Origin: an uncultured Chloroflexia bacterium
GTDB lineage: Bacteria > Chloroflexota > Limnocylindria > Limnocylindrales > CSP1-4
NCBI GenBank assembly: GCA_963717255.1
Contig: CAVQVT010000014.1
Coordinates: 8,751-72,750, forward strand
Length of the DNA stretch: 64,000 nucleotides
Direction: 5' to 3'
The position numbers and the translations under genes are program-made. A model generated the notes under the pieces. It did not search any database. It was not told where the DNA came from and was given only the letters and a program-made list of their open reading frames with translations. Each line of letters opens with the position of its first letter. The stretch's first letter is position 1. Of this stretch, positions 30,945-48,920 are shown piece by piece.

Positions 30945-31083
30945 CGCCGCAGCAGGCACGAACCGGAAGTGGAGCGGGAGCCGGGTCTCGAACCCGCGAC
31001 ATTCAGCCTGGAAGGCCGGGGCGGCTATGGGTTACAGCATGGTGCTCGGGGGCCCGAGCGAGACGTGTCCAGTCATCGTGTCT
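30945..31083 (-). repeat. junction module R1 (orphan tRNA-Gly 3' half at 30970-31015 plus conserved arms); most tRNA-distal copy
   Basis: The core differs from the tRNA at 2 positions. The right arm is GGCGGCTATGGGTTACAGCATGGTGCTCGGGGGCCCGAGCGAGACGTGTCCAGTCATCGTGTC. The left arm is the most diverged of all copies. Confidence 0.85.
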
Positions 31084-31199
31084 CCGCCAAGAGGTCCCCG
31101 AGCCCGATCCGCTGGGGGGTCACGATGACGGCGGTCGCCGTTGCCGCCCGCCGGCCGTCCTCTGGTCATTCGACGATCGTCCCGTCCGGCCGGATGCCG

Positions 31200-31327
31200 A
31201 GATCGCCGCCTTCCTGCCCCTGACGTACGTGGTCAAGCTCATGCGGGGACTCTGGGTCGGCGAGCAATGGTCCGACCGGTGGCTCGGCGCGGTCCCGACG
31301 GCCGGGATCGTGGACGGCCGAAGGTAG
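31200..31327 (+). pseudogene. 3'-terminal fragment of an ABC-2 permease gene, paralogous to 23584..24333
   Basis: 31200-31265 is identical by eye to 24176-24241 (66 nt). One mismatch follows, then 9 more identical nt, then divergence. The fragment encodes ..IAAFLPLTYVVKLMRGLWVGEQWSDRWL.. with a stop at 31325-31327. No upstream part of the gene is present. Confidence 0.65.
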
Positions 31328-31337
31328 GAGGCCACGC

Positions 31338-33734
31338 CTACTCGTACCTGATCGCGTCGCCGGGCTTCATGCTGGTGGCACGCCGGAGAGGGAAGAAGAT
31401 CACGATCAGCGTGCCGATCATCGCGAAGACGAACGACCAGCCGATGTAGATCAAGGCGAACTTGTCGGGCAGCGTGAGCTTCATCCCGCTTGCCATCGCG
31501 GCAGCCATGATCCGGTACACGACCCAGCCCAGCGGAATGCCCACGACCCACCCGAGGAACGCCAGGAAGAGCCCCTCCGACGCGAAGACGTTCCGCACGT
31601 CCCTTGACTGGGCTCCGATGCACCGGAGCATCCCGATCTCCGTGGTGCGGTCCAGGATGTTCATCACGAGCGTGCTCATGAGCCCGACAAGCACGATGAG
31701 CACGATGATGAAGCTCACCATCAGGAACATCGTGACGAGCGTCGAGTTCTGGGCGACGTTCTGCGCGGCCGCCACGTAGTTGATGGTGATGTCGGCCCGG
31801 TAGCCCGATGCCTCCAATCGATCGGAGACCCGGCGGGCGGTGGCGTCGATCGCCGGGTGGTCGCGGCTGTCGGTCTGGATGAAGAAGCCGTTGACCGCAT
31901 CGCCCTTCTGCAGCACCGCCTGCACCGCCTCCAGGGGGGCATAGACGAACTGGCCGTTCTCCGTGAAGGCGGCGTCGATGCCGATGACCTCGAACTCGTG
32001 TGCGCCCGTCGCCGTCATGAGCTCGATGGTGTCGCCCAGTCCGATGTTCTCGAATCGGGAGAGTGCGTCCCCGATGACGACGACCCGAGCGGCTGCCCTG
32101 ACCTCTTCCGGAGTCCACCAACGCCCCTGGCCGTTCTCGAGCAGCGTCTCTCGGAAGTCGAGCGCCTGTGTGCCCTGCACGTACCCGTAGAAGGGCACGG
32201 TCCTGTCGTTGACCTGGGCGAAGGTGCTGTTGACCGGCTCGGCCGACTTCACCCCGTCGACGCCCTCGATGAGGGCGGCCTTGTCGGCGGTCATGGGGTC
32301 GGTCGGGTCGTCTGCCACGGTCGTCCACATGTCCCAGGTCCGGACGTCGTAGGCGCCGACCGTCATGTCGATGAGGCCGTCGCCTCCGTTGAGCATGGTG
32401 AGCACGACGGCGACCGCGAAGGCGACCTGCAGGATCGTCGAGATGCTCCTGCCCTTGCGGCGGGCCGCGTTGCGGATGCCCATCTGGACGACTCGGGGGA
32501 TGCCGCGGATGCGCATGAGGATGCGATCGGAGAAGGTCCGGCCGTAGTCAGCCGAGATGCCATGACTCTCCAGGCCTTCCACGACCGAGACGCGCAGCGT
32601 CCGGAGGATCGCCGGCAGCGACGCCAGGATGACGACGCCCACGCCGACAGCCAGGCTGATGCCGACGGTCGGCCAGTGCACGTCGAAGGGCGCGTCGAAT
32701 CCGAAGCTCTGCTTCATGAATGTGCGTTCGACCACGCTCGCCACGAGGATCCCGAGCCCCGCGCCGATGCCCGCGCCGATGAAGCCGATGATCGCGGATG
32801 TGGTCAGGAAGGACCGGAACACCGTCCCTCGGGTCGCACCGATCGCCTTCATCATCGCGATCTCTCGGGTCTGTTCGGAGACGATGGTGTTCATGGTGTT
32901 GGCGATGAGGAAGAGGCTCACGAACAGGATCAGGAACGCCAGGATCGCCATGAAGTTCATGATCTGCGAGAAGATCTCCCGTCCCTCCCAGAACCCCTCC
33001 TCGCGCACGTCGGCCAGGTTGTCGAACGCGACGACCGACGTGTTGGCCACCAGGTAGTCGCGGATGACCTCCACGGTCCGCGCCATCGCTGCCGGGTCGG
33101 TGTCCTTCAGGGTGAAGTCCAGGTTGGTGAACCCGGTCCGGCCGCTGACCTGCTCGACCGCGTCAAGGGTGGTGTAGAAGACGGCCACGCCGCCGCGGGT
33201 GGCCCCGCTGTGGATGAAGTTCTTGCCGACCCCCGTGACACGCAGGCGGCTCGTGGTGCCCGTCGGGTCCTGCACGGTGATCTCGTCGCCTTCGGCCAGC
33301 GAGATGACGGCGTTGGCTGCGTTGCCCTGGTCGGTCAGGACCTGCATCCCGCGGGGCACCTCGCCCGAGGTGATGCGGACCACGTCGACCGCTTGATCCG
33401 CGTAGTCGGGGACGCCGACGAGAAGTGCCCTCTGGCGCCTGCCGTCGATCTCCATCGCCACCGGCAGCTCGGCCTGCGGGGACATCTGGTCGACGTTGTC
33501 CAGGGCCTTCAGATCGTCGAGCTGTGCGTCGGTGAGCTGCACATCGGTCACGCGAACGCCGACGTTGTGCATCTTCTCGGCCTTGAGCTCCGCCGCGACG
33601 CCACGGTCGGCGAGCGGCGTGATCGCGAACAGCCCGATGCCCATCACGCCGAGGGCCACGGTGACGATCGTGAAGGCGGTGCGGGCCTTCCGGCGAGCGA
33701 GGTCCTTCCACGACTTCTTCAGCAGCGCTGACAT
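31338..33734 (-). CDS. ABC transporter permease with two FtsX-type domains (MacB/YbbP-like)
   Basis: 798 aa. AGGAGG RBS. Two 4-helix FtsX modules (..FVSLFLIANTMNTIVSEQTREIAMMKAIGAT.. and ..LVGLMSTLVMNILDRTTEIGMLRCIGAQ..), each preceded by a large extracytoplasmic domain. Confidence 0.85.
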   Translation of the reverse strand: MSALLKKSWKDLARRKARTAFTIVTVALGVMGIGLFAITPLADRGVAAELKAEKMHNVGVRVTDVQLTDAQLDDLKALDNVDQMSPQAELPVAMEIDGRRQRALLVGVPDYADQAVDVVRITSGEVPRGMQVLTDQGNAANAVISLAEGDEITVQDPTGTTSRLRVTGVGKNFIHSGATRGGVAVFYTTLDAVEQVSGRTGFTNLDFTLKDTDPAAMARTVEVIRDYLVANTSVVAFDNLADVREEGFWEGREIFSQIMNFMAILAFLILFVSLFLIANTMNTIVSEQTREIAMMKAIGATRGTVFRSFLTTSAIIGFIGAGIGAGLGILVASVVERTFMKQSFGFDAPFDVHWPTVGISLAVGVGVVILASLPAILRTLRVSVVEGLESHGISADYGRTFSDRILMRIRGIPRVVQMGIRNAARRKGRSISTILQVAFAVAVVLTMLNGGDGLIDMTVGAYDVRTWDMWTTVADDPTDPMTADKAALIEGVDGVKSAEPVNSTFAQVNDRTVPFYGYVQGTQALDFRETLLENGQGRWWTPEEVRAAARVVVIGDALSRFENIGLGDTIELMTATGAHEFEVIGIDAAFTENGQFVYAPLEAVQAVLQKGDAVNGFFIQTDSRDHPAIDATARRVSDRLEASGYRADITINYVAAAQNVAQNSTLVTMFLMVSFIIVLIVLVGLMSTLVMNILDRTTEIGMLRCIGAQSRDVRNVFASEGLFLAFLGWVVGIPLGWVVYRIMAAAMASGMKLTLPDKFALIYIGWSFVFAMIGTLIVIFFPLRRATSMKPGDAIRYE

Positions 33735-33745
33735 GTGGAGACCTC

Positions 33746-34420
33746 CTAGGCCTGGACGAGCTGTCCGTCGACCATCTCCACCTTGTGTCTGGCCTTCGCG
33801 GCCAGGGCCGGGCTGTGCGTGACGTAGATGACCGTCTTGCCCTGCCTGTTGAGCTCGTCGAACAGCTCGAACATGGCGGCCTCGGTCCTGGAATCGAGGT
33901 TGCCGGTGGGTTCGTCTCCGATGAGCACCTTAGGCTCGTTGACGAGCGCCCTGGCGATCGCGACACGCTGTTGCTGGCCGCCGGAGAGCTCCGAGGGGAG
34001 GTTGTCGACCTTGTCGCCGAGCCCCACGAGCTCCAGTCGCTCGCGGGCGCGCTTCTTGCGCTCAGCGACACTCCCGCGCCTGAGGAAGTCCATGGGCAGC
34101 ATGACGTTCTCGAGCGCGGTGAGTGTCGGGAAGAGCTGGAAGAACTGGAAGACGATGCCGACGTTGGCGCCCCGCCAGGCGGCGAGCTTGTCTTCCTTCA
34201 TCTGGTCGATGCGATCCCCGGCGATCGTGACGCTGCCGCCGGTGGGCCGGTCGATGCCGGTGATCATGTTGAGCATCGTCGACTTGCCCGACCCGGACGG
34301 TCCGACGATGGCCACGAGTTGGCCTTCTTGGATGTCGAGATCGACGCCCTTGAGAGCCTCGAACTCGAGCTTGCCGGTCTTGTACGTCTTCCTGAGATCG
34401 CGAAGCTGGATGAGCGACAT
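33746..34420 (-). CDS. ABC transporter ATP-binding protein (MacB/LolD-type)
   Basis: GPSGSGKST, IVFQFFQLFPTLTALENV, LSGGQQQRVAIARAL, LIGDEPTGNLD, YVTH. Confidence 0.9.
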   Translation of the reverse strand: MSLIQLRDLRKTYKTGKLEFEALKGVDLDIQEGQLVAIVGPSGSGKSTMLNMITGIDRPTGGSVTIAGDRIDQMKEDKLAAWRGANVGIVFQFFQLFPTLTALENVMLPMDFLRRGSVAERKKRARERLELVGLGDKVDNLPSELSGGQQQRVAIARALVNEPKVLIGDEPTGNLDSRTEAAMFELFDELNRQGKTVIYVTHSPALAAKARHKVEMVDGQLVQA

Positions 34421-34850
34421 GGAACAGCTCCCTCCGCTCCAGTCCCGCCGTCATCCCAGCGCCCGGGAGTGCGGGTCGGTCTCGCCCGCGGCTCAGCGCG
34501 GTCCCGGCGGCCGGGGCATGGGCCGCGTGTCCAAGCCCCCCGCTGCGGCCGATGCTGGTTCCGGACAGACACGCTCGCCAGAGCCGGAGGTCGCCTTGAT
34601 CAGTGAAGCCGCGGTCGGCGCGAGCGGCGCCTGAACACGATCGGGCCCGGGCGGGACGGCGGTGGATGGAAACGAGCCCGCCGCGTGCTTCATCGACCGC
34701 CGCCGGGTAGCTGTGCGCGCCGAGATCCACGTCGGCGGCGATCACGCGGCTTCGCGACACGGAAGCTGGTCGCGGCTGAGCGCTGTGGCGGTGAACACGG
34801 GCGCTCAGGGGACCGCAGAAGGCCGAGTGGGTGTCTCGCACCACAGGCTG

Positions 34851-35003
34851 CGTGTCGCCCGGAGCACGGAACCGGGGAAGTGGAGCGGGAGACGGGTCTC
34901 GAACCCGCGACATTCAGCGTGGAAGGCCGGGACGGCTACGCGTTACAGCATCGTGCTCGGGGGCCCGAGCGAAACGTGTCCAGTCATCGTGTCGTCACGG
35001 GGG
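34851..35003 (-). repeat. junction module R2 (orphan tRNA-Gly 3' half at 34881-34926 plus conserved arms)
   Basis: The core has 1 mismatch. Left arm CGTGTCGCCCGGAGCACGGAACC. Right arm ..CATCGTGCTCGGGGGCCCGAGCGAAACGTGTCCAGTCATCGTGTCGTCACGGGGG, followed by an 11-nt tandem duplication (34993-35003 / 35004-35014). Confidence 0.85.
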
Positions 35004-38000
35004 CGTCACGGGGGCCAGCTTGGGCGCGGCGGAGTTGCCAGTCCGGTCCGATGAAGGAGCGAGAGCAGCGTCGAGCCGGGCGATGAACGGCGCGGCCTCC
35101 AGCCGGACGAGGATCTCGCGTGCGGCCTTCGCGGCGGCCCGCACCTCCGGACCGGCCGGCTCGAGCAGCGTCGCCATGGTGATCCCGGTGAGCGACTCGC
35201 GCCAGGGCGCGCCGAGGTCGCGCCATCCTGCGAGCGCCTCCCGGAAAGCCGACAGCGCGTCGCCCGCACGCCCGTCGAGGGCCGCCAGCCCGGCCCGGAT
35301 CGTCCGGCGGTCGATATCGACGACCCTGCCGTGTACTCCGGTCGCGTCCAGGGCGGCGAGCGCGGCGGCCGCCCGCTCGCGGTTGCGCTCCCAGAGGGCG
35401 CAGATGGCGGCGTAGAAGAAGATGTAGCTCGCCTCTGCCGGGCGAATGTGCCCGTACGCCATCGCCGCGTCGCAGGCATCGGAGAGCCGGCCCGACCCGA
35501 AGGCGACCCAGAAGCGCAGCTCGGGGATCGTTTCGCGCGCCACCGTGGCGTCCGCGGCACCGAAGTACCGCTCCAGCCAGCCCGCCTCCTCGGCCGGGTC
35601 TTCCCCACGCAGGGAGTTGATCATCAGACGACTGTAGGTCAGATGCGCCTGCTCGACGTCCTCCGGCGCCGTCTCCATGGCGGCCGCGCACTCGCCCAGG
35701 GCCCAAGCCCAGTCTCCCGATTCCACGGCAGCCTGTGTCGCGTTCACCATGGTGTGGGCGTATCCGGCGCGATCACCGAGCCGCGCCGCCAGCGCGAGCG
35801 CGGCCCGGGCGGCGTCGAACGAACCCCGGAGGTCGGAGTCGATCAGTCTGAAGCTGAGGCTGCCCAGGCCGGTCACGGTGACCTGCGTGAGCCCATTCGC
35901 CTGGGCAAGGTCGATCCCCGCCCTGACCGCGCCGACCCCTTCGTAGGAGCGGCCGAGATTGCACAGGGCGGAACCGCGAGTGACCAGCGTGTCGGCCACG
36001 AGCGCCACGAGGTCGCCCCGCTCGGCCGCGGCCAGAGCGCGGTCGGCGACCTCGATCCCCCGTTGATGCTGCTCGCCGACCATGAGCGCTCGTGCGAGCT
36101 GGCTGTCGAGGGCGACGGCTCCGGGGTCCCCGGCCAGGTCGGCGAACTCCGTGGCGGCGGGCTCGAGGATCGCCAGCGCGCGGTCGTCACGCAGACCGCG
36201 GCCGAGCGCGCGACCGAGCTCCGCGGTCGCGCGGGCGGTCGCCGGGCGGTCACCGAGCCCGCGATAGGTGTCCGTCGCCCGCACGAGGTAGCGCTCCGCC
36301 GCGTCGTGGTCGGCGGCCATGGAAGCCGAATGGCCGGCACGCTCGAGGAGGAGGGCCTGCTCCGCCGGGTCGGTCGTCACGCTGAGCGCATGCTCGAGGA
36401 ACGCGACGGCCTGCGCATGGGAGCCCAGGCCCGCGGCGCGCTCGGCAGCCGCCCGCAGGGCGATGCGCGCCTGGGCGGCGACGTCGTCGGACTCCGCTCC
36501 GCCGGGGGCGTTGCGGTAGGCGGCGACGTAGTGACCGGCAAGTGCGCCGGCGAGCTCGTCGGTCCCGAGCACCTCGAAGTAGCGGGCGGCCGCGAGGTGG
36601 CGGACCTTCCGGTCGCGCTTCGCGAGCGTGTTGTACGCGACCTCGCGGACCAGCGACTGGACGAAGGCATACTGACCGCGCTCCGGGGAGCGGGGGTTGC
36701 CCTCGACCGCGAGGAGCTCGCGCCGCACGAGGGAGAGGAGGCGGGGCTCGAGCTCGGGCTGTGGGATGCCGGACACGGCCGCCAGGGCGTCACGGGTGAA
36801 GCTCTGGCCGAGGACGGCGGCATCGGAGAGGAGGGCCCGGTCGGCCGGCTCGAGACCATCGAGACGGGAAGCGATGAGCGCGGTGAGCGTCTCAGGGACG
36901 GCCAGGGTCGCGAGATCGTGGATCGGCCGGTAGACGTCACCATCGAGGGTGAGCCTGCCCTGGGCGAGGAGCATGCGGACCGTCTCGACCGCATAGAGGG
37001 GCACCCCGTCGGCGCGTTCGACGATCGCCAGGACCGCCGCCTCGGGGAGCCCCGGCACGAGCCCCGCCAGGAGCTCGCGCATGACCGCCGCCGGGAGCGG
37101 CTCGAGGAAGATCGAGGTGAAGCTCCGCTTGCCCGCGCCCCAGGCGGGGAGCTCCTCGAGGAGCTCGGGCCGGGCGAGGGTGAGGACGAAGATGGGGAAC
37201 GAGCGGCTCCACTCGAGGAGGGCGTCGATGAAGTCGAGGAGCCCCGGGTCGGCCCACTGGATGTCCTCGAAGACCATCACGACCGTGCCAGTCGCGGAGA
37301 GCCGCTCGAAGAACGTCCGCCAGGCCGCGAAGAGCTGCTCGGGGTCGACCGCATCAGTGTCGATCCCGAGGAGCGCGAGGAGAGCCGGCTCGATCCAGCG
37401 GCGCTCGGCCACGTCGGGGACGTGCTCGGCGACCGTCCCTGCGACCTTCGCCCGCGTCGTGCGCTCGTCGTCGGTCCCGACGAGGCCGGCCCGTGCGCGA
37501 ACCATCTCGCCGAGCGCCCAGAACGTGATCCCCTCGCCGTACGCGGGGCTGCGGCCCTCGTGCCACCAGATCGGCTCGACGAGCCCGTCGAGGTACTTCT
37601 CGAACTCCCAGGCCAGGCGGGTCTTGCCGATCCCGCCGATTCCGGTGATCGAAACGAGCCTGGCCCGCTGCTCCCGGCCCGTCGCGTGGTAGAGGTCCTT
37701 GAGCAGGCGCAGCTCGTCCTCGCGGCCGACGAAGGGGGCCTCGAGCGTCTCCGACCGGTTGCGGCCGCCCCGTTCCGCGACAACGCGAAGGGCTCGCCAG
37801 GCCTGGACCGGGGCGGTCTTGCCCCTGAGGGTCAGCTCGCCGGCCTCCACGAACACGATCGCCCGGCTCGCGGCACGTTGGGTCGCCTCGCCGACGAGGA
37901 CCGTGCCCGGGGCAGCGGCCGACTGCAGCCGGCTCGCCGTGTTCACGAGGTCGCCGGCGACGATCCCCTGGCCGACGGCCCCGAGGGTGACGGCGGCCTC

Positions 38001-38492: not shown

Positions 38493-38633
38493 CGGGCACT
38501 CCGATGCGACGTATGGGACCGAGCGTACCGCAGGAAACCCGTCACGGACAGGGGTTCCGCCACCGTGAGCCTCTTGGCATACGGTCGGGATGCGCCCTCT
38601 GGGTGGTCCAGAAGGCCGCCCGCACGGGGAGCA

Positions 38634-38781: not shown

Positions 38782-38818
38782 TGCCGATTCGCGCATACCG
38801 ACCGCTTCTCGGCCGGGT

Positions 38819-38991: not shown

Positions 38992-38995
38992 GCGC

Positions 38996-39793
38996 TCAGC
39001 TCGTGAGCGGGGTCGCGGGCAGCACCACGGAGAGCTCCGCGAGCAGCGCCTTCAGCGCCGGGAGCATGAGGTCCGGGCGCTCCAGGACACCGACATGGTC
39101 GGCACCGGGCACCACGACGAGCCGGGCACTCGGTGGAAGGGATGGCACGGTCCAGCCTTCGATCTCCACCTCGCCCCAGGCGAAGAGCGCGGGCACCGCG
39201 AGTTCGGTAAGTCGCTCGGGGATCGGCTCGACCAGGTTCCAGCCGCGCATCCAGGCCGCCATTGCCAGAGGATCGGCCTGGCTCACGAGGCGGGCCCGCT
39301 CGGGTCGGCCCTCGTCCTCGAGCTTGGCCACCAGCCTCGCCATCCCATCGCGCTCAATGAACTGCGCCCGCGTGTCGTCCGAGTCGCTCTCGGTCGGCAG
39401 ATCGGCGAATCCCACCGCCTCCGGGTCCGAGCCGATCGCAGCGACAGCGTCGACGCGATCGGGGTAGCAGGCGGCCGTGCGGAGCGCCGTGTTGGCACCC
39501 AGCGAGAAGCCGCAGACGGCCGCCGACGAGAGCCCGACCTCGTCGAGGACGGCAACGACGTCGGTGGCGAGACGCGAGAACCGATAGGCATTCGGGTCGT
39601 GCGGCTTGTCACTCTGGCCGTGCCCGCGGAGGTCGATCAGGACGAGCTGATGGTCGTCGCGGAGGCCATCGATGTAGCCGTCGATCCGCCAGAGTTCCGA
39701 CGACGTGTACCCGCCGTGGAGGAGGACCAGGGGCGGTCCGCTCCCTTCGAGCTCGAAGTGGATCGTCAGGCCCGAGCGTCGCGTCGTCGGCAT
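38996..39793 (-). CDS. alpha/beta-hydrolase fold protein
   Basis: ATG at 39793. PPLVLLHGG, LIDLRGHGQSDKP, nucleophile elbow GFSLGAN, and C-terminal VVPGADHVG. The annotated start at 40075 lies inside module R4 and is rejected. Confidence 0.8.
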   Translation of the reverse strand: MPTTRRSGLTIHFELEGSGPPLVLLHGGYTSSELWRIDGYIDGLRDDHQLVLIDLRGHGQSDKPHDPNAYRFSRLATDVVAVLDEVGLSSAAVCGFSLGANTALRTAACYPDRVDAVAAIGSDPEAVGFADLPTESDSDDTRAQFIERDGMARLVAKLEDEGRPERARLVSQADPLAMAAWMRGWNLVEPIPERLTELAVPALFAWGEVEIEGWTVPSLPPSARLVVVPGADHVGVLERPDLMLPALKALLAELSVVLPATPLTS

Positions 39794-40023
39794 CGGGGTT
39801 TGGCTCCGTCCTCGAGGATGCGTCCTGAGGACCGGAGCATGCCACGCGGGGGGAGGCGGCACCAGCGGGGGACCGCGGCGGTCGCTCGTGCCCGAACGAG
39901 CGTGGCGTCGTAGACGTCGCTGCCAGGTCTGGGTCACTGAGCGTTGTAGCGGCGAACGCAGGCGCTGTCGAGGGCCGCGGCAGGCCCTATGAGTGTCCGG
40001 CGGTCGCAGGCTGCGTGTCGCCC

Positions 40024-40175
40024 TGAGCACCAACCGAGGAAGTGGAGCGGCAGACGGGTCTCGAACCCGCGACATTCAGCTTGGAAGGCCGGGACGCCTG
40101 AGCGTTGTGGCACCGTGCTCAGGGGCCCGAGCGTAACGTGTCCAGTTATCGTGTCGTCACGGGGGCGGTCCAGTG
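40024..40175 (-). repeat. junction module R4 (orphan tRNA-Gly 3' half at 40053-40098 plus conserved arms)
   Basis: The core has 1 mismatch. Left arm CGTGTCGCCCTGAGCACCAACC (shares a further ~12 nt, CAGGCTGCGTGT, with R2). Right arm ..CACCGTGCTCAGGGGCCCGAGCGTAACGTGTCCAGTTATCGTGTCGTCACGGGGG. Confidence 0.85.
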
Positions 40176-40341
40176 GCTCGCGGGCATCCCCTCGCCTGAC
40201 CGCGATCCGGGCGTCGCGGGGCGTCTATAGTCGGGGGACGCACCCCGTTCGGCAGGTGTCGGTCGCGAAGCGGGTTGCCTGACTGTGCTACCTACCGGTC
40301 GCTGCCCACGCTCGCCCGTTGCACGCGCCAAGGAGGACCCG

Positions 40342-42693
40342 ATGCCGATCGTCGAATACCCCGCGGGAGCACCCTTCCCCGGCGTGATCGGTCGAACCGC
40401 CGACGAGTCGAGCCCGGCCTGGCCGGCGCCGACGCGGGCGCAGAAGGGCACCCCGAACGTCCTGTTCGTCGTACTCGACGACACCGGGTTCGGACAGCTC
40501 GGCTGCTACGGCAGCCCGATCGAGACGCCGAACTTCGACGCACTCGCGGCGGACGGCCTGCGCTTCAACAACATGCACACGACGGCGCTGTGCTCGCCGA
40601 GTCGCGCCTGCATCGTCACCGGGCGCAACCACCACAGCAACGGCATGGCGTGCATCACCGAGTTCGCCACCGGCTACCCGGGCTACAACGGGATCATGCC
40701 GTTCGAGAATGGGATGCTCTCAGAGATGCTGCTTGAGCACGGCTACGGCACGTACATGGTCGGCAAGTGGCACCTCACCCCGAGCGTCTACGAGACGGCC
40801 GCCGGGCCGTACGACCGCTGGCCGCTGGGGCGCGGCTTCCAGCGGTTCTACGGGTTCCTCGGCGGCGACACGAGCCAGTGGTACCCGGAGCTCGTGTACG
40901 ACAACCACCCGGTCGAGCCGCCCAGGACGCCCGAGGAGGGCTACCACCTGACCGAGGACCTGGTCGACAAGTCGATCGAGTTCATCACCGACCTCCGCCA
41001 GATCGACCCCGACAAGCCGTTCTACCTGCACCTGTGCTTCGGCGCGACCCACGCCCCGCACCACGTGCCCAAGGAGTGGGCCGACAAGTACGCTGGCCAG
41101 TTCGACGACGGCTGGGACGCCTACCGCGAGCGCGTGTTCGCCCGCCAGAAGGAGCTGGGCATCCTACCGGCCGACGCGGAGCTCTCGCGCCACGACCCGG
41201 ACGTGCCGGAGTGGGATTCACTGTCCCCGGAGGCCCGCCGGCTCTCCGCCCGGATGATGGAGGTGTTCGCCGGCTTCCTCAGCCACACCGACCACCACCT
41301 CGGCCGGCTGCTCGACTACCTGCGCGAGCAGGGCGTCCTCGACAACACCATCGTCATGGTCATCAGCGACAACGGCGCCAGCGCCGAGGGCGGCCCGGGC
41401 GGGACGACGAACGAGGCCCAGTTCTTCAACAACGCCCAGGAGACGCTCGAGGAGAGCCTGGCCGTCATCGACCAGATCGGCGGCCCCGAGCACTTCAACC
41501 ACTACCCCTGGGGCTGGACGTTCGCGGGCAACACGCCGTTCCGGCGCTGGAAGCGCGAGACGTACCGCGGCGGCTCGACCGACCCGTTCATCGTGTCCTG
41601 GCCCAAGGGCGTCATGGCGCGCGGCGAGGTTCGCACCCAGTACGCCCACATCATCGACATGGTGCCGACGGTCCTCGACCTCCTCGGCATCGAGCCTCCG
41701 AGAGCGATCCGCGGGGTCACCCAGGCGCCGATCGAGGGCGTGAGCTTCGCCCACGCGCTCGACGATCCCTCAGCGCCCAGCCGCCACCACGTCCAGTACT
41801 TCGAGATGCTCGGCCACCGCGCCATCTACAAGGATGGCTGGCGAGCGGTCTGCCCGTGGCCAGGCCCCTCGTTCGCCGAGGCCGGCACGGGCTTCGGCAA
41901 CCCGATCTCGGCCGAGACGCTCACGAAGCTCGACGCCACCGGCTGGGAGCTCTACCACATCGACGAGGACCCGGCCGAGAACCACAATCTGGCGGCAGAC
42001 AACCGCGAGAAGCTGATCGAGTTGATCGGCACCTGGTACGTCGAGGCCGGCAAGTACGAGGTGATGCCGGTCGACGGCTCGGGTCTCGCCCGGATGATCG
42101 TCGAGAAGCCGCTCGTCGCGGTCCCTCGCAACCAGTACACGTACGTGCCCGGGACCCAGTCGATCCCGAACTTCGCCGCGCCGCGCCTGCATAACCGTCC
42201 GCACAGCATCACCGCGACCGTGGTCATCCCGGAGGGCGGCGCCGAGGGCGTCCTGTTCTGTCAGGGGACGGCGGCCGGCGGCTACTCCCTGTACGTCAAG
42301 GGCGGTCGGCTGCACTACGTCCACAACTACGTCGCCCGGCAGCGGTTCACGGTCTCGTCACCCGACGCGCTCCCGTCCGGCCGGCATGAGCTGCGCTTCG
42401 AGTTCGAACCCACCGGCCAGCCCGACATGGCGCACGGCCACGGTGCCCCCGGCCGGCTCCAGCTCTACGTCGATGGGGCGCTGGTCGCGAGCGCCGACGT
42501 CCCGTACACCACGCCGTTCATGTTCAACCCGGGCGGCGTCAGCTGCGGCCACAACCCGGGGTCCCCGGTGACCCCGGAGTACACGAGTCCGTTCAAGTTC
42601 ACCGGGGGCCTCGAGAAGGTCGTGGTGGACGTCAGCGGCGAGCTGATCGTGGATCCCGAGGCTGAGCTCAGGATGCACATGGCGCGCCAGTAG
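40342..42693 (+). CDS. arylsulfatase (type I, formylglycine-dependent)
   Basis: AAGGAGGA RBS. NVLFVVLDDTGFGQLGCYGS. FGly motif CSPSRACIVTGRNHH. GKWHL, and later SDNGAS. About 780 aa. Confidence 0.9.
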   Translation: MPIVEYPAGAPFPGVIGRTADESSPAWPAPTRAQKGTPNVLFVVLDDTGFGQLGCYGSPIETPNFDALAADGLRFNNMHTTALCSPSRACIVTGRNHHSNGMACITEFATGYPGYNGIMPFENGMLSEMLLEHGYGTYMVGKWHLTPSVYETAAGPYDRWPLGRGFQRFYGFLGGDTSQWYPELVYDNHPVEPPRTPEEGYHLTEDLVDKSIEFITDLRQIDPDKPFYLHLCFGATHAPHHVPKEWADKYAGQFDDGWDAYRERVFARQKELGILPADAELSRHDPDVPEWDSLSPEARRLSARMMEVFAGFLSHTDHHLGRLLDYLREQGVLDNTIVMVISDNGASAEGGPGGTTNEAQFFNNAQETLEESLAVIDQIGGPEHFNHYPWGWTFAGNTPFRRWKRETYRGGSTDPFIVSWPKGVMARGEVRTQYAHIIDMVPTVLDLLGIEPPRAIRGVTQAPIEGVSFAHALDDPSAPSRHHVQYFEMLGHRAIYKDGWRAVCPWPGPSFAEAGTGFGNPISAETLTKLDATGWELYHIDEDPAENHNLAADNREKLIELIGTWYVEAGKYEVMPVDGSGLARMIVEKPLVAVPRNQYTYVPGTQSIPNFAAPRLHNRPHSITATVVIPEGGAEGVLFCQGTAAGGYSLYVKGGRLHYVHNYVARQRFTVSSPDALPSGRHELRFEFEPTGQPDMAHGHGAPGRLQLYVDGALVASADVPYTTPFMFNPGGVSCGHNPGSPVTPEYTSPFKFTGGLEKVVVDVSGELIVDPEAELRMHMARQ

Positions 42694-42781
42694 GCGGCCG
42701 GACGTTCCCACCCACCCGGGGAGTCATGACAAGGAGGGTCAACTTCCTGGACCCGTGACCTCCAGGACTCTGGGTGCCGGG

Positions 42782-42935
42782 CGTGTCGTGCTGAGCACGA
42801 AACCGAGGGCTGGAGCGGGAGACGGGTCTCGAACCCGCGACATTCAGCTTGGAAGGCCTCGGCGACTATGCGTCACAGCATCGTGCTCAGGAGCCCGAGC
42901 TTAGGCGTGTCCAGTTATCGTGTCGTCGTGGGGGG
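42782..42935 (-). repeat. junction module R5 (orphan tRNA-Gly 3' half at 42811-42856 plus conserved arms)
   Basis: The core is identical to the tRNA. Left arm CGTGTCGTGCTGAGCACGAAACC. Right arm ..CATCGTGCTCAGGAGCCCGAGCTTAGGCGTGTCCAGTTATCGTGTCGTCGTGGGGGG. Confidence 0.85.
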
Positions 42936-43158
42936 CGTGTGAGCCCTGGTCGCGGTCGATCGCGATGACCATGGTCGCCGAGGCGCTACCGCCCCACCGG
43001 CCCGCCTGACGGCTCGCGGCTCGACCTTCATGCCGAACGCCTCTGGCGGGCCCGGGCACGCCCTGCTGGAGTGATCTCAGGCGACTGGGCCGCCACCAGC
43101 GGTCCGTTCCAACCCTGCCATCGGTGGCTCGGCCCCCCGGCACAAGCGGCGGCAGATC

Positions 43159-43845
43159 GTGAACGCGAAGCCAAGTGTCGCGTCCCTCCTCCTCGGGTTC
43201 GTCCTCGCAGCGTGCGCGAGCACTTCCACGACCCAGGCGCCGGCGGCCGCGCTCGCCACCTCGATGGCCACGCCCACCGCCTCGCCCGAGCTGACCGAAC
43301 CCCCGACACCAACGCCGAAACCCACAACCACGGCGACTCCGGTTGTCGGGCCGACAGCGACACCGAATCCGACGCCAACGCCGAAACCCGTGGCGGGCTG
43401 GCCCTCCGTCAGCCGGGCGGGGATCACCATGGCCGGCGCCGTCGAAGACTCCGCTGGGACGGACGGTCGCCTCCGACTCTCGATCACCGTGGCCGGGCTT
43501 GCGCCGGGCGAAGTCGTCTCACTCAGTGCCGCGGGGAGGTACGACATCCTCGAATGGATCTGCGGGACCGCGCCCGAGCCGTGCGGCGACCTCGGGTGTG
43601 GGCCCGGCACCTACCGCGAGACGGAGGGGACAGCCACGGCCGCCGCTCAGGCGGTCGCCGGTACCGACGGCACGGTCGCCGCCCGGGTCTCGCTCGTCGC
43701 CGCACCCCCTGCCGAGTCCTGCCCCACGGACACCAGTTCGCCGTGGGTGGCGAAGCACGAACGATGGGAGAAGGTGAGCATCGCGGACTCCGCCCATGGC
43801 CTCCTCCTGACCCCAGAGACGATCGAGCGGGGCTTCACCTACTGA
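43159..43845 (+). CDS. hypothetical lipoprotein, copy 1 of 3 (Pro/Thr-rich linker plus Cys-containing C-terminal domain)
   Basis: GTG start. Lipobox LGFVLAAC. Linker ..TEPPTPTPKPTTTATPVVGPTATPNPTPTPKP... The domain has 5 Cys (WICGTAPEPCGDLGCGPG..ESCPTD). No family was recognised. Confidence 0.7.
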   Translation: MNAKPSVASLLLGFVLAACASTSTTQAPAAALATSMATPTASPELTEPPTPTPKPTTTATPVVGPTATPNPTPTPKPVAGWPSVSRAGITMAGAVEDSAGTDGRLRLSITVAGLAPGEVVSLSAAGRYDILEWICGTAPEPCGDLGCGPGTYRETEGTATAAAQAVAGTDGTVAARVSLVAAPPAESCPTDTSSPWVAKHERWEKVSIADSAHGLLLTPETIERGFTY

Positions 43846-43892
43846 CGCGGCCTCGCACCGGGCGTGGCACCGCGGCGTGGCACCGGGGAGCG

Positions 43893-43949
43893 GGACGGGA
43901 CGGGCACTGGGCCATCCGGGCGTTCGTCGCGAACGCATCTGTCCCGTCC
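43893..43949 (+). terminator. nested GC-rich hairpin downstream of the lipoprotein gene (no U-tract); repeated in each cassette copy
   Basis: The outer stem is GGACGGGAC (43893-43901) / GTCCCGTCC (43941-43949). It encloses the hairpin GCGTTCG-tcg-CGAACGC (43920-43936). The same structure occurs at 46359-46415. Confidence 0.3.
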
Positions 43950-44015
43950 GCCAGCGCTACAGCACTCAATTCGGCCGCATCACCCGCTCGTCGAGATAGC
44001 CGGCCGTCCGGCTAC

Positions 44016-44168
44016 CGTGTCGTCCTGAGCACGAAACCGGGCTCTGGAGCGGGAAACGGTCTCGAACCCGCGACATTCAGCTTGGAAGGCCTCGGCGACT
44101 ATGCGTCACAGCATCGTGCTCAGGAGCCCGAGCTTAGCGTGTCCAGTTATCGTGTCGTCGTGGGGGGC
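44016..44168 (-). repeat. junction module R6 (orphan tRNA-Gly 3' half at 44046-44090 plus conserved arms)
   Basis: The core has 1 substitution and a 1-nt deletion (GGGAAACGGTCTC). The arms are as in R5/R7. Confidence 0.85.
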
Positions 44169-44388
44169 GTGTGGAGCCCTGGTCGCGGTCGATCGCGATG
44201 ACCATGGTCGCCGAGGCGCTACCGCCCCACCGGCCCGCCTGACGGCTCGCGGCTCGACCTTCATGCCGAACGCCTCTGGCGGGCCCGGGCACGCCTGCTG
44301 GAGTGATCTCAGGCGACCGGGCCGCCACCAGCGGTCCGTTCAACCCTCCATCGGTGGCTCGGCCCCCCGGCACAAGCGGCGGCAGATC

Positions 44389-45076
44389 GTGAACGCGAAG
44401 CCAAGTGTCGCGTCCCTCCTCCTCGGGTTCGTCCTCGCAGCGTGCGCGAGCACTTCCACGACCCAGGCGCCGGCGGCCGCGCTCGCCACCTCGATGGCCA
44501 CGCCCACCGCCTCGCCCGAGCTGACCGAACCCCCGACACCAACGCCGAAACCCACAACCACGGCGACTCCGGTTATCGGGCCGACGGCGACACCGAATCC
44601 GACGCCAACGCCGAAACCCGTGGCGGGCTGGCCCTCCGTCAGCCGGGCGGGGATCACCATGGCCGGCGCCGTCGAAGACTCCGCTGGGACGGACGGTCGC
44701 CTCCGACTCTCGATCACCGTGGCCGGGCTTGCGCGGGCGAAGTCGATCTCACTCAGTGCCGCGGGGAGGTACGACATCCTCGAATGGATCTGCGGGACCG
44801 CGCCGAGCCGTGCGGCGACCTCGGGTGTGTGGCCAGGCACCTACCGCGAGACGGAGGGGACAGCCACGGCGGCCGCTCAGGCGGTCGCCGGTACCGACGG
44901 CACGGTCGCCGCCCGGGTCTCGCTCGTCGCCGCACCCCCTGCCGAGTCCTGCCCCACGGACCCCAGTTCGCCGTGGGTGGCGAAGCACGAACGATGGGAG
45001 AAGGTGGAGCATCGCGGACTCCGCCCATGGCCTCCTCCTGACCCCAGAGACGATCGAGCGGGGCTTCACCTACTGA
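44389..45076 (+). pseudogene. lipoprotein copy 2 of 3, disrupted by several indels
   Basis: Same gene as 43159..43845. Two deletion/insertion pairs locally scramble the frame and then restore it (GLAPGEVVSLS to GLARAKSISLS; APEPCGDLGCGPG to APSRAATSGVWPG). One uncompensated inserted G (gagaaggtg-g-agc) removes the normal C-terminus. Confidence 0.65.
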
Positions 45077-45245
45077 CGCGGCCTCGCACCGGGCGTGGCA
45101 CCGCGGCGTGGCACCGGGGAGCGGGACGGGACGGGCACTGGGCTATCCGGGCGTTCGTCGCGAACGCATCTGTCCCGTCCGCCAGCGCTACAGCACTCGA
45201 TTCGGCCGCATCACCCGCTCGTCGAGATAGCCGGCCGTCCGGCTA

Positions 45246-45401
45246 CCGTGTCGTCCTGAGCACGAAACCGGGCTCTGGAGCGGGAGACGGGTCTCGAACC
45301 CGCGACATTCAGCTTGGAAGGCCTGGGACGACTGATGCGTCACAGCATCGTGCTCAGGAGCCCGAGCTTAGCGTGTCCAGTTATCGTGTCGTCGTGGGGG
45401 G
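45246..45401 (-). repeat. junction module R7 (orphan tRNA-Gly 3' half at 45276-45321 plus conserved arms)
   Basis: The core is identical to the tRNA. The arms are as in R5/R6. Confidence 0.85.
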
Positions 45402-45624
45402 CGTGTGAGCCCTGGTCGCGGTCGATCGCGATGACCATGGTCGCCGAGGCGCTACCGCCCCACCGGCCCGCCTGATGGCTCGCGGCTCGACCTTCATGCC
45501 GAACGCCTCTGGCGGGCCCGGGCACGCCCTGCTGGAGTGATCTCAGGCGACCGGGCCGCCACCAGCGGTCCGTTCCAACCCTCCCATCGGTGGCTCGGCC
45601 CCCCGGCACAAGCGGCGGCAGATC

Positions 45625-46311
45625 GTGAACGCGAAGCCAAGTGTCGCGTCCCTCCTCCTCGGGTTCGTCCTCGCAGCGTGCGCGAGCACTTCCACGACCC
45701 AGGCGCCGGCGGCCGCGCTCGCCACCTCGATGGCCACGCCCACCGCCTCGCCCGAGCTGACCGAACCCCCGACACCAACGCCGAAACCCACAACCACGGC
45801 GACTCCGGTTGTCGGGCCGACGGCGACACCGAATCCGACGCCAACGCCGAAACCCGTGGCGGGCTGGCCCTCCGTCAGCCGGGCGGGGATCACCATGGCC
45901 GGCGCCGTCGAAGACTCCGCTGGGACGGACGGTCGCCTCCGACTCTCGATCACCGTGGCCGGGCTTGCGCCGGGCGAAGTCGTCTCACTCAGTGCCGCGG
46001 GGAGGTACGACATCCTCGAATGGATCTGCGGGACCGCGCCCGAGCCGTGCGGCGACCTCGGGTGTGGGCCCGGCACCTACCGCGAGACGGAGGGGACAGC
46101 CACGGCCGCCGCTCAGGCGGTCGCCGGTACCGACGGCACGGTCGCCGCCCGGGTCTCGCTCGTCGCCGCACCCCCTGCCGAGTCCTGCCCCACGGACCCC
46201 AGTTCGCCGTGGGTGGCGAAGCACGAACGATGGGAGAAGGTGAGCATCGCGGACTCCGCCCATGGCCTCCTCCTGACCCCAGAGACGATCGAGCGGGGCT
46301 TCACCTACTGA
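45625..46311 (+). CDS. hypothetical lipoprotein, copy 3 of 3
   Basis: Differs from copy 1 by one amino acid (PTDPSS vs PTDTSS) and a few silent or flanking substitutions. Confidence 0.7.
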   Translation: MNAKPSVASLLLGFVLAACASTSTTQAPAAALATSMATPTASPELTEPPTPTPKPTTTATPVVGPTATPNPTPTPKPVAGWPSVSRAGITMAGAVEDSAGTDGRLRLSITVAGLAPGEVVSLSAAGRYDILEWICGTAPEPCGDLGCGPGTYRETEGTATAAAQAVAGTDGTVAARVSLVAAPPAESCPTDPSSPWVAKHERWEKVSIADSAHGLLLTPETIERGFTY

Positions 46312-46512
46312 CGCGGCCTCGCACCGGGCGTGGCACCGCGGCGTGGCACCGGGGAGCGGGACGGGACGGGCACTGGGCCATCCGGGCGTTCGTCGCGAAC
46401 GCATCTGTCCCGTCCGCCAGCGCTACAGCACGCGATTCGGCCGCATCACCCGCTCGTCGAGATAGCCGGCCGTCGCGGCTACCGTGTCGTCCTGAGCACG
46501 AAACCGGGGTGC

Positions 46513-46588
46513 TGGAGCGGGAGACGGGTCTCGAACCCGCGACATTCAGCTTGGAAGGCTGACGCTCTACCGACTGAGCTACTCCCGC
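46513..46588 (-). tRNA. tRNA-Gly, anticodon UCC, CCA encoded
   Basis: Sense strand: GCGGGAG-TA-GCTC-AGTCGGT-AGAGC-G-TCAGC-CTTCCAA-GCTGA-ATGTC-GCGGG-TTCGAGA-CCCGT-CTCCCGC-T-CCA. This gives a 7-bp acceptor stem, standard D, anticodon and T arms, and discriminator U. Confidence 0.93.
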
Positions 46589-48878: not shown

Positions 48879-48920
48879 CAGGCGCGTGTTTGCGGCGGGC
48901 CCCCGTGGCGTGCGACGCTC

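Follow-up and report, generated by a model that had tools for sequence, protein, structure and literature searches.

How does a single tRNA gene come to be followed by seven copies of its own 3′ half, with a compact gene unit lying between one copy and the next? The question is raised by a stretch of 64,000 nucleotides (hereafter the window). The first-pass annotation had ascribed it to a high-GC Gram-positive-type genome, but its host, an uncultured soil bacterium, belongs to the Chloroflexota (Limnocylindria). Serial site-specific capture by a recombinase encoded elsewhere had then been proposed. Comparative data now support this idea, with the amendment that homologous recombination and gene conversion also shape the array. 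We consider it likely, though by no means settled, that the interval consists of small integrative cassettes without integrase, stacked in tandem at tRNA-Gly(UCC) in a Limnocylindria-type genome by serial site-specific insertion served in trans.

Architecture of the Array

ARAGORN finds a single tRNA, Gly(UCC), exactly where it had first been placed. Downstream of this intact gene, its last 46 nt recur seven times on the same strand. Six of these copies start at 45276, 42811, 40043, 38661, 34881 and 30970 (0, 0, 1, 0, 1 and 2 mismatches, respectively), and the remaining one, at 44045–44090, differs by one substitution and the loss of 1 nt. All seven had been noticed earlier, but the fourth lies at 40043–40088 and not at 40053–40098. 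The number of 46-nt 3′-half repeats expected from 100 shuffles of the sequence is zero. As previously stated, the copies lack a 5′ half: none was found beside any of them, and the 5′ 32 nt of the tRNA occur once in the window.

The repeated unit extends beyond the tRNA 3′ half. In 7/7 copies the half is embedded in a conserved module of ~155 nt, where it lies between a left arm of 77 nt and a right arm of ~35 nt; these flanking arms had been overlooked. The right arm is also present directly 3′ of the intact tRNA. The whole arrangement reads as follows, from the tRNA outward:

46513–46588, minus strand: intact tRNA-Gly(UCC), head of the array and attB-like site (ARAGORN)
46478–46512, minus strand: right arm (..GGTTTCGTGCTCAGGACGACACGG), start of the newest cassette (alignment, motif search, nhmmer model positions 76–158)
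45400–46477, plus strand: cassette 1, lipoprotein gene 45625–46311(+), copy 3 of the 1232-bp unit (repeat families, 98–100% identity)
45242–45399, minus strand: module with left arm, tRNA 3′ half 45276–45321 and right arm (repeat search, alignment, nhmmer)
44167–45241, plus strand: cassette 2, lipoprotein unit with small frame-breaking indels (repeat families, sequence)
44011–44166, minus strand: module, core 44045–44090 with the 1-nt deletion and one substitution (repeat families, alignment, nhmmer)
42934–44010, plus strand: cassette 3, lipoprotein gene 43159–43845(+), signal peptide, lipobox LAAC
42781–42933, minus strand: module, core 42811–42856 (repeat search, alignment, nhmmer)
40166–42780, plus strand: cassette 4, sulfatase gene 40285–42693(+) (Pfam Sulfatase, E = 2e-69)
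40009–40165, minus strand: module, core 40043–40088, 1 mismatch (repeat search, alignment, nhmmer)
38783–40008, minus strand: cassette 5, alpha/beta hydrolase and PF09948 stump (Pfam)
38628–38782, minus strand: module, core 38661–38706 (repeat search, alignment, nhmmer)
35004–38627, minus strand: cassette 6, Zn-ribbon/adenylate-guanylate cyclase/AAA_16/TPR protein of ~1200 aa (Pfam)
34846–35003, minus strand: module, core 34881–34926, 1 mismatch, in the anticodon loop (repeat search, alignment, nhmmer)
31091–34845, minus strand: cassette 7, ABC ATPase 33746–34420 and FtsX/MacB_PCD permease 31338–33734 (Pfam)
30940–31090, minus strand: distal module, core 30970–31015, 2 mismatches (repeat search, alignment, nhmmer)

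Even with filters off, no further modules were found past the distal one or elsewhere in the window. The right side of this last module is the furthest from the right-arm consensus, as would be expected if it were the original chromosomal flank.

The same left arm is carried by the 3′ half of tRNA-Arg(UCU) behind tRNA-Arg genes. Sequence comparison supports a view in which the arms are part of the element and the core is part of the target, the module then being attP-like. The 3′ copies start at (G)CCTTCCAAGC, and the single displaced 5′ half (L107) stops at CCTTCCAAG. Displaced cores vary in 5–13 of 90 copies per position near the loop, versus 0–1 of 90 in the T arm. From the copy boundaries, the crossover appears to be sharply confined to 9 nt of the anticodon loop, the exact point of exchange being inferred.

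Cargo of the Cassettes

Pfam recovers most of the cargo first listed, namely the ABC/permease pair, the cyclase-TPR protein, the hydrolase with its PF09948 stump and the sulfatase; a “permease stump” has no Pfam match. The hydrolase ORF runs on the minus strand from 38996 to about 40000–40075, next to a stump at 38822–38995(-) that retains 43 aa of the PF09948 (former DUF2182) C terminus. The Zn-ribbon/cyclase/AAA_16/TPR ORF spans 34995–38693(-), and the next left arm opens with its TGA stop; ORF clustering makes this protein family the commonest cargo across all arrays. The sulfatase cassette is also present in a related locus, L001 (97.7% identity).

The three 1232-bp lipoprotein units are ~99% identical and each encodes a lipobox (LAAC) protein, for which no Pfam family was found in cassette 3. 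The frame-breaking indels of cassette 2 are possibly sequencing errors. These units had been counted as separate captures. At 99% identity, they more likely represent one amplified cassette.

Distribution in Related Genomes

Module-delimited arrays are observed in 104 further contigs, from 23 species-level MAGs and metagenomes, with 212 module matches spaced 0.1–5.7 kb apart. The head tRNA is included at 30 of these loci, and is tRNA-Gly(UCC) in 27 and tRNA-Arg(UCU) in 3. All named genomes with modules are Chloroflexota/Ca. Limnocylindria, except for two short contigs. The latter bear the outlying labels Anaerolineaceae and “Cellulomonas.”

Might the module be simply a generic dispersed repeat of the REP/MITE kind, or the array an artefact of assembly? 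The sequence is indeed repetitive, and the indels of the middle lipoprotein unit are typical of long-read errors. However, there are no modules in the window outside the array, and a single module orientation behind tRNA-Gly or tRNA-Arg is kept at 103/104 loci. Furthermore, many projects have yielded independent contigs with this layout, more than 100 in all, and among them is another assembly from a strain nearly identical to this one. This explanation is effectively refuted, with a proviso for the tandem of three lipoprotein units, and scattering at non-tRNA loci, which would have undermined the initial interpretation, is not seen among the loci compared. Comparison of the loci supports confinement of the modules to co-oriented arrays behind tRNA-Gly(UCC) or tRNA-Arg(UCU).

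Cassette Gain, Loss and Reordering

The first-pass annotation had suggested comparing relatives for polymorphism in cassette presence and order, and such polymorphism is observed, with breaks at the modules. L001, 97.7% identical to the window, has no hydrolase cassette, and carries a different cassette in place of the lipoprotein units. In L084 the hydrolase cassette occupies second place, the cassette next to tRNA-Arg in L019 has an internal position in L081, and an FAD-oxidase cassette is found in five arrays with differing neighbours. L077 and L129 encode an identical integrase and hold different cassettes. Gain, loss and reordering of cassettes at module boundaries between genomes are supported by these alignments, from which site-specific mobility and present-day activity are inferred but not demonstrated. 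No circular cassette contig was found.

The units could also be the remains of integrase-bearing islands after deletion of their mobility genes, in an array now old and fixed. For tRNA islands such as tycheposons, accretion in tandem with later decay has been described (preprint, 10.1101/2020.12.28.424599), gene stumps do occur within cassettes, and L059 retains a 27-aa integrase remnant. Yet this is the only such remnant seen, and the median size of the 100 non-redundant cassettes is 1.9 kb, most of them holding one gene. Both arms are moreover kept at every junction, the same cassette is 91–97% identical in different positions and arrays, and close strains differ by whole cassettes. We find such an origin quite improbable.

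The left arm follows the upstream cargo (98.7% vs. 79% identity), whereas clean co-segregation with cargo is not seen for the right arm, nor for the ~25 nt of the left arm adjoining the core. The L001 junction is a mosaic, its right arm resembling that of the missing hydrolase cassette, and core-proximal arm segments are alike inside the single array L081. Homologous exchange or gene conversion would fit the junction and the arm segregation better than one clean site-specific event.

The Recombinase

The interval had been said to contain no recombinase, and this holds: Pfam detects no such domain in its sizeable ORFs or in the other window ORFs scanned, and a tblastn search of the window with the Xer-like integrase of relatives gives no match. 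Nor was a recombinase gene found in the 100 non-redundant cassettes. A PHROG scan of 126 representative array ORFs returned two IS transposases and one tyrosine integrase, located outside its array.

A recombinase does lie beside the same tRNA in relatives. This Xer-like “simple” tyrosine recombinase of ~316 aa, 120–205 nt from the tRNA 5′ end, adjoins the tRNA divergently in L077, L129, L121, L126, L111-120 and L122/123, and does likewise with tRNA-Lys (L124/125) and tRNA-His (L127); a 2.5-kb insert separates the two in L107-L110. Canonical arrays are observed 3′ of the integrase-linked tRNA in four loci (L077, L129, L121 and L126), and the head tRNAs of L077 and L121 are 100% identical to that of the window. 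In L124 a displaced tRNA-Lys 5′ half delimits the integrase element, and in at least one case the integrase sits on an autonomous element of ~11 kb that supplies a tRNA 5′ half of its own. Among the array heads whose upstream sequence exceeds 1.3 kb, about 13 in number, a single one has the integrase beside it.

The simple recombinase lacks an arm-binding domain. It scores 144–156 bits against the XerC/XerD models, below their cut-offs of 330–335, and its identification as XerC or XerD was rejected. The integrase side and the module right arm share a TGAGCACGAA box, which recurs upstream of Gly, Lys and His tRNAs. In 690 kb there are 46 occurrences of the 10-mer GAGCACGAAA; right arms contain 43 of them, in inverted orientation, and one lies upstream of the integrase-linked tRNA of L077. 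The left arm has no significant similarity to the integrase-side region. This Xer-like clade is the best candidate enzyme, an assignment inferred by association and from one short shared box. Since the 64-kb window has neither an integrase nor, upstream of its tRNA, a TGAGCACGAA box, the array could be inactive here.

Could homologous recombination suffice on its own? The modules would then serve as portable patches of homology, 155 bp long and identical over a 46-nt core, with no dedicated recombinase today, and arrays would lengthen, shorten and swap cassettes through unequal crossing-over mediated by RecA, through gene conversion, and by taking up array fragments of foreign origin. The three tandem lipoprotein units, the L001 mosaic, the likeness of arm segments within L081 and the lack of an integrase in the window are all in its favour. 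It leaves unexplained, however, the origin of the module, the conservation of the left arm across species and two target tRNAs, the sharp crossover at the copy boundaries, and the linkage of an integrase family to exactly these tRNAs and arrays. As a complete account it seems unlikely, without being negligible.

Proposed Mechanism

In serial site-specific insertion, a circular cassette, itself inferred, would consist of cargo and one ~155-bp attachment module: the left arm, the stretch of tRNA running from anticodon loop to CCA, and the right arm. A tyrosine recombinase, encoded outside the array and the window and presumed to act in trans, would exchange strands in the anticodon loop (CCTTCCAAG), with the tRNA gene or any resident module as partner. 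The tRNA would be restored by the incoming 3′ half and the old one pushed downstream behind the new cargo, so that every array junction would again resemble a full module. Later homologous recombination or gene conversion between modules may amplify units, as with the three lipoprotein copies, and may also cause deletions and homogenise the array.

Comparison with Known Systems

In Prochlorococcus, tycheposon insertion at a tRNA pushes earlier elements outward, leaving partial tRNAs between units of ~10–20 kb, which have their own tyrosine recombinase integrase, usually a replication module, and flexible, niche-related cargo (Hackl et al., bioRxiv 10.1101/2020.12.28.424599). The arrays share this tRNA-anchored stacking, the partial tRNAs as separators, the flexible and niche-related nature of the cargo and, as a candidate, the tyrosine recombinase. 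Contrary to tycheposons, their units are of 0.5–5.7 kb without integrase or replication module, each bears the same ~155-nt two-armed site, and the candidate integrase is short, Xer-like and on the tRNA 5′ side. Within the Chloroflexota, Dehalococcoides ssrA islands likewise follow one another behind a small-RNA gene, with direct repeats of the gene's 3′ end (20 bp of tmRNA) between them and extra conserved bases beside the repeats; most islands contain CcrB-like serine recombinases, and some units without an integration module were proposed to be cis-mobilisable (PMC3146451). These islands are much larger than the units described here, and their recombinase is mostly carried within.

CIMEs, known from ICE/IME accretion in the Streptococcus model, are integrase-less elements that keep their att sites and are mobilised in trans by a tandem integrase-encoding element; they are few per locus, large, and regarded as decayed ICEs. 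The tandem integrase-less units with att sites are alike, but here up to seven or more single-gene units stand at one locus, an arrangement that predominates throughout an entire class. Like IMEX (XerCD/dif; CTX/TLC/GGI), the arrays stack integrase-less units at one chromosomal site, presumably with a simple tyrosine recombinase from elsewhere, the target being a tRNA anticodon loop instead of dif and the candidate enzyme neither XerC nor XerD.

With integrons they share the build of the array: the cassettes are small, lack a recombinase, mostly hold a single gene and each bring a recombination site of their own. Cassette order likewise differs from strain to strain, and the recombinase, where present, is of the simple (Xer-like) tyrosine type, encoded next to the primary site and oriented away from the array. 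The arrays differ from integrons in that the site is a double-stranded tRNA-derived module, in which no support for a hairpin was found, whereas attC is folded. The cargo has no strand bias (47 same vs. 54 opposite), and the integrase, usually not at the array, scores 51–62 bits against an integron-integrase cut-off of 265. The best reading remains an array that is integron-like in function and built by tRNA-anchored island accretion.

Anatomy of the Array and its Module

A single tRNA gene, a tRNA-Gly(UCC), is recognized by ARAGORN in the window, and its 3′ half recurs seven times on the same strand, while 100 shuffles gave zero matches to this 46-nt sequence. For the first 32 nt of the gene, the window holds no second occurrence, in agreement with the first-pass annotation, which had described an intact gene followed by seven orphan halves without a 5′ part. 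Its coordinates also hold, except for those of the fourth copy, which had been placed at 40053-40098 and is here moved to 40043-40088.

tRNA gene and 3′-half copies (all on the minus strand)
46513-46588, intact tRNA-Gly(UCC)
45276, 46-nt copy, 0 mismatches
44045-44090, seventh copy, with one deletion and one substitution
42811, 46-nt copy, 0 mismatches
40043, 46-nt copy, 1 mismatch
38661, 46-nt copy, 0 mismatches
34881, 46-nt copy, 1 mismatch
30970, 46-nt copy, 2 mismatches

The repeat is larger than had been described. Every copy is embedded in a module of about 155 nt, made of a 77-nt left arm (GACGACACGATAACTGGACACG .. GCTCGGGCC.CTGAGCACG .. ~25 nt), the tRNA 3′ half or core, and a right arm (.. 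GGTTTCGTGCTCAGGACGACACG). The intact tRNA is also trailed by a right arm, without any left arm. This layout, with the tRNA and a P′ arm at the head and then P arm, core and P′ arm at each internal junction, is what is expected of a chain of elements having related attP sites. No module, not even a decayed one, is found in the window outside the array. Since an intact tRNA heads the array and repeats of its 3′ part, all co-oriented, delimit the units, a layout shared by 104 other loci, one criterion of accretion is fulfilled, and anatomically the array qualifies as att-site accretion at a tRNA.

Other readings of these sequences were set aside. A site working as a folded strand, either attC-like or RNA, was rejected after RNAalifold was run on both strands of 130 distinct modules: it gave only a weak helix of invariant columns, and no helix supported by covariation beyond these. 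The left arm as a decayed tRNA 5′ half with its upstream region is unsupported, as local alignment does no better than shuffles except for an 8-nt TGAGCACG box. Finally, the pairing of TGAGCACGAAA boxes between leader and trailer as an RNA processing stem was dropped, because the window tRNA has no upstream box and trailers vary at the integrase-linked heads.

Distribution of the Module

A 25-base left-arm pattern was used to search for other loci. It is found at 27 loci in 23 MAGs among species-representative genomes and at 76 loci in JGI metagenomes; viral contigs gave no match to it. The labels of the 27 representative-genome loci are Chloroflexota, Chloroflexia or Ca. Limnocylindria, with two short contigs excepted: L028 (JADGOR010000157.1) belongs to a Cellulomonas sp. 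MAG and L019 (CAZRUC010000012.1) to an Anaerolineaceae MAG. The former, 3.4 kb long, is probably mis-binned. A viral link through the tRNA half was also considered, and discarded: its only matches fall in tRNA clusters, carried by two unrelated viral contigs, one of them 376 kb long. As for the window itself (66-79% G+C), the named sequences closest to its citrate synthase, at 72-75% identity, come from MAGs of Ca. Limnocylindrales and Chloroflexota, and the host is therefore not the high-GC Gram-positive type that had been supposed.

A profile of the window modules detects 212 copies in 104 loci, spaced by 0.1-5.7 kb, with uniform orientation in 103 of the loci. A dispersed REP/MITE repeat, which the first-pass annotation had named as a refuting outcome, would show copies scattered at unrelated loci in both orientations; this is not the pattern seen, and no copy lies outside the array in the window. 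A head tRNA, that is the intact gene from which an array starts, is present in 30 loci (27 tRNA-Gly(UCC), 3 tRNA-Arg(UCU)). The left arm is fused to a tRNA-Arg(UCU) 3′ half in six loci (L019, L063, L102, L066, L081, L083), and in the first three of these the array is headed by tRNA-Arg(UCU) itself, then by a similar right arm. As one left arm can thus accompany either a Gly or an Arg core, the arms are a property of the elements, and the core is one of the target. GCCTTCYAAGC is found at the anticodon loop of both tRNAs. Some loci have a conserved gene block (ferric reductase, FMN_bind, ApbE, HlyD) past the last module; considered as mobility machinery, it turned out to be ordinary chromosomal flank.

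Cassettes and their Cargo

Cargo of the window cassettes (families by Pfam)
FtsX/MacB permease and ABC ATPase
34995-38693, zinc-ribbon/cyclase/AAA_16/TPR protein of ~1200 aa
alpha/beta hydrolase, then a 43-aa C-terminal stump of PF09948 (former DUF2182)
sulfatase
three 1232-bp units, 98-100% identical, each coding for a lipobox protein without a Pfam family

Pfam thus confirms the permease/ATPase, the cyclase regulator, the hydrolase with its stump and the sulfatase, all of which had been assigned from the sequence, while a further “permease stump” remains unconfirmed. The stump of the PF09948 membrane protein (PpoB2), at 38822-38995 on the minus strand, abuts the left arm of the hydrolase cassette; gene truncation at the border of a cassette gives a hint of how cassettes are excised from source DNA. 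Several genes are broken by single-base indels: that of a secreted protein upstream of the tRNA (window 46826-49459, plus strand), the middle lipoprotein copy (44167-45241), and the cyclase gene of L001, the contig of a near-identical strain, which is split into three ORFs (5787-9426). Long-read homopolymer errors fit these better than real pseudogenes do. A 76-nt non-coding stretch (window 34471-34546) recurs with 87% identity at 8827-8901 of the array locus L121, in otherwise unrelated cassettes and in opposite orientation relative to the array direction.

Over all loci, 100 non-redundant cassettes have a median length of 1.9 kb (10th-90th percentiles 0.9-3.8 kb). One ORF is called in 51 of them, two in 19 and three in 4, and ORF direction is mixed (47 with the tRNA, 54 against). 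The commonest cargo family is the cyclase-AAA16-TPR protein, with 25 ORF pieces in at least 15 loci. This STAND-like regulator is often in the first cassette after the tRNA, 21 of the 25 pieces run with the tRNA, and the terminal TGA of the gene opens the left arm. Other cargo includes methyltransferases, SnoaL/DUF4440, Kelch, beta-lactamase-fold and RHS proteins, ECF sigma factors, MFS and ABC transporters, amidohydrolases and peptidases.

The earlier statement that the interval holds no recombinase is borne out: Pfam finds no recombinase domain there or in the other window ORFs scanned, and the seven window cassettes are without integrase. Outside the window, representatives of about 100 cassettes likewise yielded no integrase. 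When 126 representative array ORFs were scanned with PHROG, two IS transposases and one tyrosine integrase came up, the latter lying outside its array. Ordinary ISs occur in or beside arrays at L069 3297-4613 and L033 859-2070, both on the minus strand (IS256-type Transposase_mut and rve-type transposase). Among large or low-GC cassettes, the ORFs of L102 (5.5 kb) have no recombinase domain by Pfam; for L002 and L077 the inspection was limited to a listing of ORFs. A regular expression for the tyrosine-recombinase box II matched nothing in any locus, yet it also missed the L077 integrase described below, and this negative carries no weight; the absence of a recombinase rests on the PHROG and Pfam scans.

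Cassette Turnover

Another criterion of accretion is that the units differ in presence and order from one related genome to the next, with breakpoints at the repeats. This polymorphism, whose search had been proposed as a check, is found. L001, from another ENA assembly, is 97.7% identical to the window, and in it the sulfatase and cyclase cassettes are separated by just one module, with no 1.38-kb hydrolase cassette in between. Where the window has the lipoprotein units, upstream of the sulfatase, L001 has a different cassette carrying an 81% paralogue of the cyclase gene. Shared cassettes also appear in new contexts. The hydrolase cassette is the second one of L084 (93.6% identity), a FAD-oxidase cassette occurs in five arrays with differing neighbours, and the cassette next to the tRNA-Arg in L019 has an internal position in L081 (95.8% identity), which fits a newer insertion at the tRNA. 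L077 and L129 have different arrays beside integrases that are 100% identical. An invariant array in relatives, which would have counted against capture, is therefore not what is seen, L001 differing by whole cassettes. A fixed relic, a dispersed repeat and an assembly artefact are all ruled out by these results.

The left arm moves together with its upstream cargo, being 98.7% identical where that cargo is shared and 79% where it is not. Co-segregation with cargo is poor for the right arm and for the 25 nt of left arm that adjoin the core: at the L001 junction the right arm resembles that of the absent hydrolase cassette, and two modules of L081 have an unusual core-proximal segment in common. 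Such mosaic arms are read here as the outcome of gene conversion, or of homologous exchange, starting from the identical core, a process that would also explain the tandem of three lipoprotein units. No contig with the terminal overlap of a circular cassette was found.

An ABC-2 transporter pair with modules on both sides (L050 333-2057) is 92.8% identical to window 22170-24333, a stretch 6.6 kb past the last module and without any vestige of a module in its vicinity. There are two explanations: ordinary chromosomal genes are taken up as cassettes, or cassettes shed their modules with age.

A Candidate Recombinase

In L077, a 316-aa protein with Phage_int_SAM and Phage_integrase domains is encoded 125 nt upstream of the head tRNA-Gly, in divergent orientation. 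It has no relative in viral contigs, and belongs to a large family (304-320 aa, many on 1-4 kb contigs). The family is Xer-like and falls far under the XerC, XerD and integron-integrase cut-offs (51-62 bits against 265 for NCBIfam TIGR02249). It is therefore made of “simple” tyrosine recombinases, that is, without an arm-binding domain (PMC8138268). In every readable context the gene lies 120-205 nt from the tRNA 5′ end and diverges from it, or is parted from it only by an identifiable insert.

Integrase loci other than L077, with their tRNA and its 3′ side
L129, Gly(UCC): three modules
L121, Gly(UCC): two modules
L126, Gly(UCC): one module
L111-L120, Gly(UCC): no modules
L122/L123, Gly(UCC): no modules
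L107-L110, Gly(UCC): one partial module, in L107
L124/L125, Lys(UUU): no modules found
L127, His(GUG): contig terminates at the tRNA

The integrase is thus adjacent to, and divergent from, a tRNA with a 3′ array in L077, L129, L121 and L126. The window and most other array heads have no adjacent integrase, and the window tRNA also lacks the upstream box. The integrase-tRNA spacer is conserved and ends in TGAGCACGAA(AC) immediately before the tRNA. Array loci totalling 690 kb contain the 10-mer GAGCACGAAA 46 times: 43 copies are inverted in right arms and one is upstream of the L077 tRNA. In L107-L110 the distance reaches 2.6 kb, with a 2.5-kb ECF-sigma/Kelch unit inserted in between (L107 7300-10000). 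Along with this unit came a further copy of the upstream region and of the tRNA 5′ half, and the old 5′ half is still beside the integrase; integrase-less cassettes can therefore also load on the 5′ side. In L124 the integrase is inside a 10.9-kb element (9846-20778), whose borders are tRNA-Lys(UUU) at one end and, at the other, a displaced tRNA-Lys 5′ half that has kept the old upstream region, and which also carries Replic_Relax, HTH_17 (excisionase-like), ABC/FtsX and GerE regulator genes. L124 and L125 are 99.7% identical until 2 nt past the tRNA 3′ end and unrelated after. Replacement of the target tRNA's 5′ half, as by this type of element, is unusual.

From the linkage to tRNAs, the L124 element and the 10-mer, it is inferred that this family, which co-occurs with canonical arrays, drives elements integrating in tRNA anticodon loops; its activity is itself an inference, as is its service to integrase-less cassettes in trans. 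The 3′ copies start at (G)CCTTCCAAGC, and the displaced tRNA-Gly 5′ half of L107 terminates at CCTTCCAAG. In 90 displaced cores, each compared with its own head tRNA or, where unavailable, with the locus majority, the part from anticodon loop to variable loop differs in 5-13 copies per position and the T arm in 0-1. Strand exchange is thus inferred to occur in the anticodon loop; among tyrosine integrases that target tRNAs, one class is known to do this, as Williams reportedly described in 2002.

Defence-type genes abound on the integrase side of the tRNA (L129 10420-18533, L121 16831-20924, L111 9574-12867, L107 11029-17753), among them a Lamassu-like LmuB_C set, a ThiF/Prok-JAB/Prok-E2 set, AbiEi/AbiEii, Abi_C, a Phd-type antitoxin and Fic. 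Many members of the integrase family (P0003, P0009, P0015, P0027, P0115 and others) are each represented by dozens of near-identical sequences on contigs of just 1-4 kb, and the L127 contig stops exactly at the tRNA 3′ end. Assemblies thus seem to break on either side of the integrase gene, which is expected beside strain-variable DNA.

Comparison with Known Systems

The cassettes are like an integron array in their size, their number and the genes they hold. An integrase gene beside the primary site and divergent from the array, as in integrons, is seen in the four loci with 3′ arrays, but neither in the window nor at most array heads, and in L124 the integrase belongs to a mobile element. 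However, integrons rely on an IntI-type integrase and on attC sites, imperfect palindromes used as folded single strands, whereas the module here is a tRNA 3′ half with two arms; because both the integrase model and the attC features fail, the arrays are not integrons. Tycheposons carry their own integrase and usually a replication module beside the cargo, and the units here are not tycheposons because they have neither. An IMEX integrates at dif through the host XerC/XerD; here the target is a tRNA anticodon loop and the candidate scores far under the XerC/XerD equivalog cut-offs, which sets IMEX aside. The cassettes are closer to CIMEs, in having no integrase, conserved sites (whose function is inferred) and an autonomous integrase-bearing element at the same tRNA in relatives. 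By analogy, the system would work most like CIME-type elements served in trans, the trans action being inferred. The literature searched holds no prior description of such tRNA-based cassette arrays.

A General Gene-Capture System?

Limnocylindria are abundant uncultured bacteria of soil, peat and freshwater, and we know of no account of how they exchange genes. One broader reading, by analogy, is offered only tentatively and may well prove wrong: that a tRNA-based analogue of the integron serves as a general gene-capture system in Limnocylindria and possibly in other Chloroflexota. Short Xer-like recombinases may take whole tRNA genes (Gly-UCC, Arg-UCU, perhaps Lys and His) as primary site, and may shuttle single-gene circles bearing the ~155-bp module in and out of the 3′-side arrays. 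Elements with a tRNA 5′ half, integrase-bearing or not, may load the 5′ side. In that case a single tRNA gene may serve as a docking point with two sides, and the arrays may make up a pool of accessory genes that can be exchanged across the class.

The array system is noteworthy in being class-wide, sequence-defined and testable. The conserved module is a search handle for the flexible gene pool of this lineage in metagenomes, as attC is for integrons. If the Xer-like recombinase is confirmed, cassette-array biology would have evolved convergently on a tRNA site rather than on attC, and a small recombinase with a long specific site would be a possible tool. For these bacteria, the arrays are a compact, sequence-defined route for swapping single accessory genes, including regulators, transporters, hydrolases and lipoproteins, at one chromosomal address.
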